Of a stretch of DNA of 64,000 nt, positions 3,356 through 61,503 are shown in pieces. Position numbers and translations under genes: made by a program. The notes below the pieces were generated by a model. That model saw only the letters and a program-made list of their open reading frames with translations, was not told the origin of the DNA and searched no databases. Source of the stretch: a virus (Duplodnaviria; Caudoviricetes); IMG/VR virus record IMGVR_UViG_3300015615_000196, positions 288,001 through 352,000 of that record; one strand, 5' to 3'. Within the stretch, counting starts at the first letter, position 1; the number at the start of each line of letters is the position of its first letter.

Positions 3356-3907
3356 ATGGGAGTAATTTATACGCCACCAACCAAAATAGAAGAATCCGAT
3401 TTCATCAATTACATGGTGTTTTTGGCGGGTTCCATTGAAATGGGTGTTGCCGAAGACTGGCAGACCACACTTTCAAAGGAACTGGTCGATATACCGAAGT
3501 TGACAATTCTGAATCCAAGACGACCACAGTGGGATAACTCGTGGGTACAAAGTCTTGACAATCCAATATTCAAGGAACAAGTTGATTGGGAACTGGACGG
3601 CATCGAAAAGGCTGATCTGGTTATCTTCTACTTTGATCCGAATACCAAGTCACCGATTACCCTGCTTGAGTTGGGAATGGTGAGCCAACTGGTACGACTC
3701 GAAAAGCGAATCATTGTGTGTTGCCCCAACGGTTTCTACCGTAAGGGTAACGTTGACATTGTGGTTCACCGTATGCGAGAGAGTATCAGACAGAATCCCT
3801 TCTTCCCCAAAGATGGGTTTGTCAGTGACTACGTAATGCAAGCGGAAACACTGGAAGAATTATTGGATATTGCAAAAAGGTTTTTGAAATATAAAACCAA
3901 TTTGTAA
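3356..3907 (+). CDS. nucleoside 2-deoxyribosyltransferase-like protein
   Basis: VFLAGSI..WQ, NPRR, QVDWEL, SPITLLELG, FYRKGNV. Confidence 0.85.
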   Translation: MGVIYTPPTKIEESDFINYMVFLAGSIEMGVAEDWQTTLSKELVDIPKLTILNPRRPQWDNSWVQSLDNPIFKEQVDWELDGIEKADLVIFYFDPNTKSPITLLELGMVSQLVRLEKRIIVCCPNGFYRKGNVDIVVHRMRESIRQNPFFPKDGFVSDYVMQAETLEELLDIAKRFLKYKTNL

Positions 3908-3919
3908 CTTTCCGTCCTT

Positions 3920-4156
3920 ATGAAGGACATAAAGGAATGCCTCAAATCAACCAGTCTTGACGAGATTAAAAGAGAGATTGATGAACGTAAGGATTTACGT
4001 GCGCAAATGGTAGGACAATTGTATCCTGCAATGTTGACTGATGAAATCAGTCAGTTAACATCGCACTATACTGCCGTTTATCGTTTCGTAAAACACAACA
4101 TGGATCACATCCGAAAACAAGAAGAAGAATGGAAACCTACCCAACCGCCAATGTAA
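3920..4156 (+). CDS. hypothetical protein
   Basis: ORF in operon. Confidence 0.6.
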   Translation: MKDIKECLKSTSLDEIKREIDERKDLRAQMVGQLYPAMLTDEISQLTSHYTAVYRFVKHNMDHIRKQEEEWKPTQPPM

Positions 4157-5235
4157 ATGCAGACTTGATTGCACCACAAATTGTGTCGGTAGAAAACCGT
4201 CCGTTGGATGCAACTATTGAAATTGTGCATGGTGTTGAGAAACATCCGAATGCAGACAAACTTGATCTTTGCATGATCTTGGGTTTCAAGTGTGTGACCA
4301 AACGTGATCAATTCAAAGACGGTGACAAGGTGATTTACGTTCGCCCGGATACGGTATTTCCGTTGGCTGATTGGGCAGCAGAGTATCGTAAGTATTCACC
4401 AAAGAGAATCAAAGCAATTCGTCTTCGTGGAGTATTCAGCGAAGGCGTAATCATTCCATTCGATGCAGTGCCAGAAGACGTGCGTAATCTCATTGTCAAC
4501 TTTGCAGTGGGAGATACCGTTGCCGAAATTCTTGGCATCACGCACTACCAAGAACCTGAACCACAGGATCAATCTGCAAAAGGTGGTCTGCCTCTTGGCA
4601 TTCCGAAAACCGATGAAGAACGTTTTGAAGGTATGAAGTATCTTCCGTTCGGAGAGGTCGTTGATCTTCAATTGAAGATTGATGGTCAGTCATGCTCGTA
4701 CTACTACAACTACGAAACCAAAGTCTTTGGTATTCTTGGTCGTAGTCTGGAATTGAAGTACAAGGTGGTTGACGAAAACGGAATCGAAAGCATTGCCAAC
4801 AACAAGTATGTCGAGAACATTCCGATCTACGACATCGAAAATAAATTACGTGACTTCTGTGAGAAGGAACAAATTTCACTTTGTATCCGAGGTGAATCTT
4901 ATGGTCAAGGTTTACAGGGACATGAAATCAATCCTCATGCGAAAGCAAACAAGGGTTGGGCGATGTTCTCCGTATTCTTGATCACCGAGCATGTGTACGC
5001 TGAAAAGGGTCACAAGTATTACTTTAAGAATGTGGCGCAAGCTACAGGGCTTCCTATTGCCCCAATGATCGAAGAAGATGTAGAGTTAACACCTGAATTG
5101 GTGAAACACTATTCCGAAGAAATTGAAAAGCTGAACTACAATGGCATTCAAGCGTTACCGTTTGAAGGTGTTGTGGTAAAGACAAAAGCCGGATCATTCA
5201 AGATCATCAATAAGTACTACGATGCAAACAAGTAA
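4129..5235 (+). CDS. RNA ligase, DRB0094/Rnl5 family
   Basis: N-terminal OB/tRNA-binding HPNADKL; RLRGVFSEG; PKTDEER; KIDG motif I; EGVVVK; SFKIIN. Confidence 0.88.
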   Translation: METYPTANVNADLIAPQIVSVENRPLDATIEIVHGVEKHPNADKLDLCMILGFKCVTKRDQFKDGDKVIYVRPDTVFPLADWAAEYRKYSPKRIKAIRLRGVFSEGVIIPFDAVPEDVRNLIVNFAVGDTVAEILGITHYQEPEPQDQSAKGGLPLGIPKTDEERFEGMKYLPFGEVVDLQLKIDGQSCSYYYNYETKVFGILGRSLELKYKVVDENGIESIANNKYVENIPIYDIENKLRDFCEKEQISLCIRGESYGQGLQGHEINPHAKANKGWAMFSVFLITEHVYAEKGHKYYFKNVAQATGLPIAPMIEEDVELTPELVKHYSEEIEKLNYNGIQALPFEGVVVKTKAGSFKIINKYYDANK

Positions 5236-10550: not shown

Positions 10551-10621
10551 TGGATACTGGATGATTCGAACATCCGTTAACCCCCTCAATGGGGCCGTTC
10601 TAACCGCTAAACTAAGTACCC
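10551..10621 (-). tRNA. atypical tRNA-like gene (non-canonical anticodon loop ATTGAG; possibly Gln-TTG derived)
   Basis: acceptor GGGTACT/AGTATCC, D-arm GTTT-AGCGGTTA-GAAC, T-arm GGATG-TTCGAAT-CATCC; anticodon arm GCCCC-ATTGAG-GGGGT. Confidence 0.7.
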
Positions 10622-10868: not shown

Positions 10869-10980
10869 TGGGAAGGGATGGACTTGAACCACCAACCTCT
10901 CAGCTTTGCGATCTGTAAAGATGCATACCATTGCATTTGATTTCCGCATCACTGAGTTCTCTAACTTGAGATACCTTCCC
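10869..10980 (-). ncRNA. tRNA-shaped RNA with a 48-nt insert in the anticodon loop
   Basis: GGGAAGG/CCTTCCC-A acceptor, TCTC/GAGA D-stem, CTCAG/CTGAG stem, GGTGG-TTCAAGT-CCATC T-arm. Confidence 0.8.
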
Positions 10981-11220: not shown

Positions 11221-11292
11221 CGCGGATACCCGGATTCGAACCGAGGTCAAGGGATTTAGAGTCCCCTGTTCTGACCACTAAACTATATCCAC
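11221..11292 (-). tRNA. amber suppressor tRNA (anticodon CTA)
   Basis: GTGGATA/TATCCGC-G acceptor, GGGGA-CT-CTA-AA-TCCCT anticodon arm, CTCGG-TTCGAAT-CCGGG T-arm. Confidence 0.9.
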
Positions 11293-56013: not shown

Positions 56014-57078
56014 GTGAACATAAAATACTTCACAACGATCAACTACATTGAAGAGAACGCCCTCAATCAAATAGAGGACTTGCGTCAGGAAGAACACATC
56101 CAAGATGTTGCCGTGTTCCCTGATATTCATTTCTGTGACGAGAAGGGAATACCAGTCGGATTGACTTTTGCAACAAAGGACGTTGTCTATCCATTGATCA
56201 CTGGTAAGGACATGGGTTGTGGAGTTGCGTACTTGAAGATACCAAACCAATATATCTTAAAGCCTTTCAACAAAGACGAACACTATCGTGCTTTCGACAA
56301 AGCACACTTCAACATGACTGATGAAGGACTTGGTGGTGGTAATCACTTCCTTTCATTGGAAGTAGACGCTGGTAACTTGTATGTTATCGTTCATACTGGA
56401 ACACGAAACAGAGGCATCTACATGTACCAACGTAACATGGGATTGCTACAAGAATACGGTAGCAAGAAATACTTCACCGTTGACTTCCTGAACACGAACT
56501 ATCCGAAGTGGTTTGATGAATACAACGGAGTCATTGAATACGGCAAGCAACGTAGACTTCAATTCCTTAAAGGTACGTTTGATTTCCTTGTACGTAACAA
56601 GTACGTTATGAGCATGAACTTCGATGCGTTGCTTCGTGGTGATTCAGTTCATAATCATATCAAGAAGGAAGGAGATCAATACATACACCGTAAGGGAGCA
56701 ACCGAACTCGGCAATGAGATCGTAGTTATTCCGTTGTCGATGACCAGAGGAAGTTTGTTTGTCAAACAACGTTTCAGATATTCAAGTGTTGGGCAAGATA
56801 CCAGTAACTTGAACTCCTGCTCTCATGGTGCTGGAAGAAAGTTAAGCCGTACCAAGACCATGAAGTACTGGCATAGTTCTTTGAAGGAGAGAGAACGAAA
56901 GGAATACCGTGAACGATTCAATGAGTTACTTGATCGTAGTGGTGACTTCCCAAAGGGTTACATACAAGAGTTTGACTTTGCATACAAAGACTCCAATGAC
57001 TTGTTGAGAGAGCAACCGTTCCTTCAACAGATCACCAGAACCACACCAATCTGTACAGTTAAATTCACCGAGATATGA
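56014..57078 (+). CDS. rtcB: RtcB-family RNA ligase
   Basis: PDIH...PVG, DMGCG, LGGGNHF, HTGTR, HNH, HRKGA, SHGAGR. Confidence 0.9.
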   Translation: MNIKYFTTINYIEENALNQIEDLRQEEHIQDVAVFPDIHFCDEKGIPVGLTFATKDVVYPLITGKDMGCGVAYLKIPNQYILKPFNKDEHYRAFDKAHFNMTDEGLGGGNHFLSLEVDAGNLYVIVHTGTRNRGIYMYQRNMGLLQEYGSKKYFTVDFLNTNYPKWFDEYNGVIEYGKQRRLQFLKGTFDFLVRNKYVMSMNFDALLRGDSVHNHIKKEGDQYIHRKGATELGNEIVVIPLSMTRGSLFVKQRFRYSSVGQDTSNLNSCSHGAGRKLSRTKTMKYWHSSLKERERKEYRERFNELLDRSGDFPKGYIQEFDFAYKDSNDLLREQPFLQQITRTTPICTVKFTEI

Positions 57079-58510: not shown

Positions 58511-58944
58511 TGGACTACACGGCTGGCATATTCCTTTTGAACGGACAGAATGAAATACTTCTGGTTCATCCAACTAATGCTCGTTGGAATACTTGGTCTA
58601 TTCCCAAAGGATTACCAGACGAAGGAGAGACTATACTGGAAGCTGCCAAGCGTGAATTGTTTGAAGAAACGAACGTAGACATCAACAAACTACAACTCGT
58701 TTACTTATACGACAAGATTAAACCAGTGTTGTACGCATCAAAGAAGAAGACCTTGTGTCCCATCTTCTGCAAGGTAGTGAAAGACCTTGACACACTTGAA
58801 CTCAAATGCAATTCACTGGTGGAAGGTGCTAACTTCTACGAGAACGACAAGATTGAATGGGTTGGATATGAAAGAGCATTGACCCTGATACACGAATCAC
58901 AAGTAAGAGCGTGGAAAGAATTCATAATGACATCCCTACGATGA
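58510..58944 (+). CDS. NUDIX hydrolase
   Basis: PKG..D.GE...EAAKRELFEET. Confidence 0.9.
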   Translation: MDYTAGIFLLNGQNEILLVHPTNARWNTWSIPKGLPDEGETILEAAKRELFEETNVDINKLQLVYLYDKIKPVLYASKKKTLCPIFCKVVKDLDTLELKCNSLVEGANFYENDKIEWVGYERALTLIHESQVRAWKEFIMTSLR

Positions 58945-60621: not shown

Positions 60622-61503
60622 ATGTCAAATCAAAACTCAATGTTTTTCCCGGCAAATCAGCCAACCACACAGGTGATTAACATTTCACCTGCACTGGCAG
60701 ATTCACTCCTTCAAAGAAACAAGTTGAATCGCAACTTGAAGAAGGCACAAGTAGCTACCTATGCAGAACAAATGCGTCAAGGAAGGTTCCAATCCTTGAA
60801 TGGTCAAACCATCAGCGTTGCAGGTAATGTTGTAAATGGAACTCTCTTGGATGGTCAACATCGTTTGACTGCCCTGATCGAAGCTGGCGTTACACTTCCT
60901 TTCTTGGTTGTGAGCGGACTTAGCGAAGATGTTATTCCGACAATCGACATCGGTGCAAAGAGAACGGCTGGTGACTTGTTCGATATGAACAAGATTCAGT
61001 ATGGCCGTATTCTTTCCGCAGCAATTTCGACTTATGCGAAATTGGTTTATCGTGCTGAGAACGATAAGCGTAAGATTGAAGGAGAACTTTCAGCATACAG
61101 GCTGACTCCTGAATCAATCTTCCATCTGTACATCAAGAACTCAAAGGATGCAGATGAAATTGTGAAGCTGGCCTTCTCATTCTACGAGAAGTTCAACATT
61201 ATCGGCCCTTCACAAATCGGTGGTATGATGCTCTACACCAGACTCCACAGCGTATTCAAGCACCGTGCGGATGCTGAATTCTGGAAGCCATTATTCACTG
61301 GTGAGAATGCTTCTGGAATGGTGAACGTATGCCGTAACTACCTGATCAACGAATTGGGTAAGCCGAAGTACAACCGCAGAAGTGCGACTGAACTTGTGAA
61401 CGCGATCATCAAAGCGTACAACACGCATTTTGGTATGCCTACCAAAACGTTGAAGTCTACGTCTTTGACCATTGCCACCAAGAGTGACAAGGCGTTCCTT
61501 TAA
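60622..61503 (+). CDS. ParB/Srx-like (DGQHR) domain protein
   Basis: NR.L....V..Y..QM..G, LDGQHRL.A, ID.G.KR. Confidence 0.75.
   Translation: MSNQNSMFFPANQPTTQVINISPALADSLLQRNKLNRNLKKAQVATYAEQMRQGRFQSLNGQTISVAGNVVNGTLLDGQHRLTALIEAGVTLPFLVVSGLSEDVIPTIDIGAKRTAGDLFDMNKIQYGRILSAAISTYAKLVYRAENDKRKIEGELSAYRLTPESIFHLYIKNSKDADEIVKLAFSFYEKFNIIGPSQIGGMMLYTRLHSVFKHRADAEFWKPLFTGENASGMVNVCRNYLINELGKPKYNRRSATELVNAIIKAYNTHFGMPTKTLKSTSLTIATKSDKAFL

Follow-up and report, generated by a model that had tools for sequence, protein, structure and literature searches.

Conserved tRNA-like RNAs with a structured rod in place of the anticodon loop in very large phages: candidate non-decoding tRNA mimics

Phage T5 encodes three small RNAs (RNA1, RNA2 and RNA3), annotated as 'tRNA-like stable RNA with unknown functions' (AY543070.1), which lie within its tRNA gene region and of which RNA1 and RNA2 fold as cloverleaves with an enlarged anticodon arm and no usable anticodon loop. 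For decades, no function has been assigned to these RNAs of T5. A different kind of precedent is the 'enigmatic' tRNA introns of the Lak megaphages: these are short inserts, too small to self-splice, in the anticodon region of tRNA genes of very large Bacteroidota-type phages, and the tRNAs that carry them have an assignable anticodon and occur both as insert-bearing and as insert-free alleles (Devoto et al. 2019, PMC6784885). The YrlA-type Y RNAs (RF02553), which are bound by Ro60/Rsr, join a tRNA-like module to a protein-binding helix. The tRNA introns of archaea and eukaryotes, which are cut by EndA at a bulge-helix-bulge (BHB) and joined by RtcB, are likewise short inserts of the anticodon arm. 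Finally, in engineered E. coli tRNA scaffolds, a cargo helix replaces the anticodon loop, with the tRNA body providing processing and stability.

Here we analyzed a tRNA-like gene in a 64,000-nucleotide stretch of viral DNA (hereafter the window; positions 288,001 to 352,000 of the IMG/VR record IMGVR_UViG_3300015615_000196), which belongs to a phage whose 362.6 kb record has terminal repeats and some 60 tRNA genes. On the minus strand, from 10980 to 10869, the element is a full tRNA cloverleaf, in which 48 nt lie between the two strands of the 5-bp anticodon stem (Table 1). The anatomy given in the original prediction, namely a 7-bp acceptor stem with A73, a D stem, a 5-bp anticodon stem, the 48 nt, a 5-nt variable loop and a T arm, holds on that strand: the Rfam tRNA model RF00005 scores the element at 46.3 bits, against a gathering score of 29 (E-values of 4.6e-8 with 2.8 kb searched and 1.4e-9 with the genome searched). 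Rfam families other than tRNA give no match to it at E up to 10, and it is passed over by ARAGORN whether intron mode is on or off. Minimum-free-energy folding returns the cloverleaf, one arm of which is rod-like (-38.6 kcal/mol, z -3.7). The element has the acceptor, D, anticodon and T arms of a decoding tRNA, with covariation in all four helices, but 48 nt take the place of the 7-nt anticodon loop of a decoding tRNA, in which position 33 is U and position 37 a purine. Its D loop has 6 nt and lacks the usual GG; the single G in its place may make for a weaker elbow.

Table 1. Features of the tRNA-like RNA and associated genes (window coordinates)
Feature	Position	Strand	Evidence and remarks
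Whole tRNA-like RNA, 112 nt	10869..10980	-	RNA position 1 = 10980, discriminator A73 = 10869; Rfam RF00005 and family model R1
Acceptor stem, 5' strand	10974..10980	-	Partner 10870-10876; 7/7 pairs standard, 5/7 invariant across seven phages
D arm: 4-bp stem and 6-nt loop, single G	10958..10971	-	4/4 stem pairs covary in the family
Anticodon stem, 5' strand	10952..10956	-	Partner 10899-10903; 5 Watson-Crick pairs, 4/5 covary in the family
Insert replacing the 7-nt anticodon loop, 48 nt	10904..10951	-	Rod by folding; found once in the genome; a U33/R37 loop is not obtained by any excision
Apical hairpin of the rod, 5 bp and 6-nt loop	10921..10936	-	Absent from the shorter orthologous inserts
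7-nt motif UUACAGA	10912..10918	-	Also in the L034 and L035 inserts; directly 5' of the 3' strand of the inner helix
Variable loop, 5 nt	10894..10898	-	Last base (position 48) covaries with position 15
T arm: 5-bp stem and 7-nt T loop	10877..10893	-	Standard form; RF00005 match and family alignment
Amber-suppressor tRNA, anticodon CUA	11221..11292	-	Opens the RNA operon of the element; landmark for positional orthology
RtcB-family RNA ligase gene	56014..57078	+	PF01139, 102 bits; 45 kb from the element

Judged by its predicted fold and its place in a tRNA cluster, the element has its closest known counterparts in T5 RNA1 and RNA2. However, the T5 RNAs are unrelated to it in sequence and match the tRNA model poorly (24 bits for T5 RNA1, as against 46 bits for the element), and the T5 arms are branched with a T-arm-like hairpin, whereas that of the element is a simple rod. 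The likeness to the YrlA-type RNAs extends to the combination of tRNA-like module and helix but not to the topology, as the ends of the element's own RNA form the acceptor stem; in addition, RF02553 is not matched and a TROVE/Ro60 gene is absent from the phage.

No close DNA match was recovered from cultured phages or IMG/VR. Exact-pattern scans were negative as well, both that of IMG/VR with the window element and those of IMG/VR and GTDB genomes with the family pattern. The MmcB-like protein encoded near the element has relatives of 57-69% identity, and the comparisons below are with six syntenic relatives (L034, L035/L036, L037, L038, L039 and L040). Their contigs display a matching gene order and the corresponding RNA operon on the minus strand, composed of small ORFs and an amber-suppressor tRNA, then of tRNA-like genes along with a larger structured RNA. 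In L034, L035, L037, L038 and L039, the tRNA-like gene that comes first behind the amber tRNA has a body closely resembling that of the window element; the orthologue in L040 is preceded by three other shells, one of which has a large insert. In place of the anticodon loop, the orthologues carry inserts of 21-31 nt with differing sequences. A covariance model (R1), built from the six relatives alone with the window element left out, gives the latter 55.5 bits, ranking it first among the about 60 tRNA-like hits in its genome (the runner-up has 47.3 bits), whereas the general tRNA model ranks it 52nd of 60. The D and anticodon stems of the window copy differ from those of the other members, and its predicted membership of the family rests on position, on the similarity of the T arm and acceptor stem, and on this 8-bit margin. 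Conservation, which the original prediction had made a precondition for function, is borne out in that the gene is kept in the six syntenic phages with covarying helices. The closest protein relative (P0001, 89% identity) falls outside the compared set, and a metagenome scan with the helicase yielded only 43%-identical loci, which are devoid of tRNA-like shells. A more distant phage (G001) has tandem tRNA bodies with the family's T arm (L017:3850-3919 and 3763-3839, minus strand), whose anticodon stems end in loops of 4 nt and 9 nt. A separate idea, that the element is a recent copy of a decoding tRNA, was rejected, as its body has no close paralogue in the genome.

Across the seven RNAs, whose small number and model-fitted alignment make the counts supportive rather than final, standard pairs occupy 147 of the 147 helix cells, and compensatory changes on both sides are seen in 12 of the 21 pairs, an extent reached in none of 500 shuffles. 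Shifting the pairing partners along the alignment abolishes this signal, and RNAalifold on the same RNAs returns the identical cloverleaf with the same 21 pairs. The tertiary 15-48 pair also covaries, being G-C in five phages and A-U in the window element and L035, which points to selection on the L-shape beyond the minihelix needed for end-processing. The acceptor stem is near-invariant in the seven phages, while the acceptor stems of the amber tRNAs from those loci are all different; given this disparity, the acceptor end appears to be read by some partner. Unlike in the man-made scaffolds, the body of the element itself, the acceptor stem above all, is under strong sequence constraint.

The inserts themselves are far less uniform. 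By folding, every family member has an anticodon stem prolonged into a hairpin in place of the loop, with at least three rod types among them. That of the window element begins with a single wobble pair and a 2x2 purine loop, which lead through a 5-bp helix and a large internal loop to the apical hairpin. The rods of L037, L040 and L038 contain an internal loop with AGUA opposite GAAA, which we take to recall the loop-E or bulged-G motif, and those of L034, L035 and L039 are of another design. The UUACAGA motif occurs once per operon region, each time inside the insert, and an ordered 6-mer is additionally common to the window and L034 inserts; with the chance of any shared 7-mer at ~0.05 by shuffling, the motif is moderate evidence for kinship of the window insert with those of L034 and L035. 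Its equal structural place, along with the further ordered 6-mer, suggests that the 48-nt insert is an inherited 27-nt insert expanded by the apical hairpin 10936-10921. No pairing target for UUACAGA was found within the operons, and with insert sequences of at least three types, a sequence-specific role of the rod is uncertain. Two other interpretations of the insert were discarded. It is not a mobile repeat, being single-copy with only chance 9-12-mers elsewhere. The kink-turn boxes C and D have look-alikes in its 5' end and in the 3' strand of the anticodon stem (10899-10956, minus strand); we put this down to chance because the fold would break the cloverleaf register and is present in no orthologue; an L7Ae gene is absent from the phage.

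Building on the fold, its conservation, the missing anticodon and the operon position established above, we propose that the gene product is an unspliced RNA, predicted to be stable, that would copy the whole L-shape of a tRNA while being unable to read codons, its anticodon stem continuing into a structured rod where the loop would be. It would be co-transcribed with the amber-suppressor tRNA and several other structured RNAs, and would probably be released from the precursor by ordinary tRNA end-processing enzymes and receive its CCA from a CCA-adding enzyme. This tRNA-type processing is suggested by the A/U-rich leaders of the family members, by the lack of an encoded CCA in all seven sequences, and by a CCA-adding/poly(A) polymerase head domain in the phage (PF01743, 84 bits; G000:C1:230396-230779, plus strand, within an open frame of 992 aa); RF00010 at E 0.01 recovered no RNase P RNA from the phage. 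Once released, the RNA would most likely bind a protein or enzyme that recognizes the near-invariant acceptor stem and the tRNA body. The rod would bar it from the decoding site of the ribosome and provide another contact surface that can be swapped. An unspliced, non-decoding tRNA mimic that acts through a bound partner is in our view the best explanation of what the sequences hold, with a probability of about 0.75.

The main question raised by the original prediction was whether the insert is instead an intron, and it had likened the geometry to that of BHB or bulge-helix-loop introns. The segments on which this was based (3 unpaired nt, a 4-bp helix and 3 unpaired nt) do occur in the sequence, but not in a bulge-helix-bulge layout: an internal loop at the base of the 4-bp helix is formed by the first and last 3-nt segments, which lie opposite each other, and the third bulges out from the strand that also carries the first. 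Enumeration of two opposed 3-nt bulges around a 4-bp helix gave none compatible with the cloverleaf, and the EndA-like nuclease, the search for which had been advised, did not surface, with the PF01974 profile of the EndA-family splicing endonucleases, run against the phage genome only, finding no match at E up to 1. Moreover, when all single excisions that leave a 7-nt loop are enumerated, every one has G33 and none combines U33 with a purine at 37. Excisions from the orthologues produce no canonical anticodon loop in five of six, L038 alone giving a canonical-looking but isolated one; the orthologues have no anticodon in common, and none is insert-free. Thus, although the position in the anticodon arm, the similar insert size and the RtcB gene in the genome recall BHB-intron tRNAs, the bulge-helix-bulge, a phage EndA and a canonical loop after excision are all lacking. 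The RtcB gene is 45 kb distant from the element, and RtcB in phages is usually tied to the repair of cleaved tRNA; still, its presence along with an RNA ligase gene 6 kb off would fit a scheme in which some nuclease cuts out the insert and either ligase reseals a decoding tRNA. Such a scheme could also draw on the small unexplained introns reported in Lak megaphage tRNAs (PMC6784885), which share with the present insert a size too small for self-splicing, but the Lak tRNAs can be assigned an anticodon and also exist as alleles that lack the intron, whereas here no anticodon is restorable and the insert is seen in 7/7 members. We hold an intron-bearing tRNA to be very improbable. Between the two outcomes that the original prediction had left side by side, the conserved family, with covariation in helices and the tertiary pair, speaks for the unspliced tRNA mimic and not for non-canonical splicing; the element is thus probably a conserved non-decoding mimic as opposed to a tRNA awaiting splicing.

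A mimic shape could also serve as mere punctuation, the tRNA fold being an RNase P and 3'-processing signal that frees the neighboring RNAs, with the released piece having no job of its own. This would account for the variable length and sequence of the insert, as expected if shape alone counts, for the spacers of about 3 nt by which the element adjoins other putative folded modules, and for the lack of a detectable minus-strand terminator inside the operon. However, an acceptor/T-arm minihelix suffices for RNase P and RNase Z, whereas here the D stem, the anticodon stem and the 15-48 pair covary and the acceptor sequence is near-fixed; furthermore, G001 has two such bodies in tandem with nothing between them to release. 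Since parts that processing does not need are conserved, a pure processing-signal role is less likely, and we rate it as distinctly unlikely. The D loop without GG and the failure of ARAGORN to make a call might alternatively hint at a decaying tRNA pseudogene broken by an insertion, but its helices are all perfect and covary in seven phages at about 60-70% protein identity, the genome holds no close decoding paralogue and the insert is not a repeat. Decay is accordingly hard to credit.

If the element is indeed a mimic, a tempting false lead, archaeal-style tRNA splicing in a bacterial virus, gives way to a defined and conserved family of anticodon-less tRNA mimics of very large phages. Their fixed acceptor stem, selected L-shape and swappable rods provide handles in the search for a partner, for which a synthetase, a tRNA-targeting defence nuclease and a processing enzyme are candidates. 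On a more speculative note, jumbo phages might keep a set of non-decoding tRNA chassis, with one fixed acceptor stem and interchangeable rods, whose acceptor end is charged or bound and which serve as harmless decoys or as adaptors in countering host factors by which tRNAs are attacked or sensed. The rod variants may then include a plain helix, a loop-E-like module and larger domains in neighboring genes. This would amount to an undescribed class of counter-defence, a tentative idea to which we give only modest odds. For annotation, the family is a warning that tRNA counts of huge phages include genes incapable of decoding.

Our analysis also brought up other unusual RNA genes in these phages. 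A tRNA body at window 10551-10621 (minus strand; 50.8 bits) has a 6-nt anticodon loop, for which ARAGORN gives a two-base anticodon, and homologues in L034, L035, L039 and L042. Further tRNA shells with non-canonical anticodon arms are found at L035:8126-8241 and at L040:4595-4675 and 4433-4514 (all minus strand), the L035 shell containing an embedded T-arm-like minihelix as in T5 RNA2. The RNA ligase gene of the window (4129-5235, plus strand; ~6 kb from the element) codes for a PHA02142 OB fold and an RNA_ligase domain, and is kept within a few kb of the RNA operon in L035/L036, L037 and L040, the relatives whose DNA reaches there. In its intron mode, ARAGORN reports a tRNA-Lys with a 2,024-nt intron (G000:C1:241987-244108) and a CUA tRNA with a 19-nt intron (G000:C1:59159-59272), both of which are missing from the list of the general tRNA model. 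Long variable arms are normally confined in bacteria to Leu, Ser and Tyr tRNAs; in this genome, ARAGORN calls tRNAs that have such arms along with Asn, Thr, Lys and Met anticodons at G000:C1:55818-55907, 58642-58728, 61000-61083, 82621-82709 and 95429-95520.
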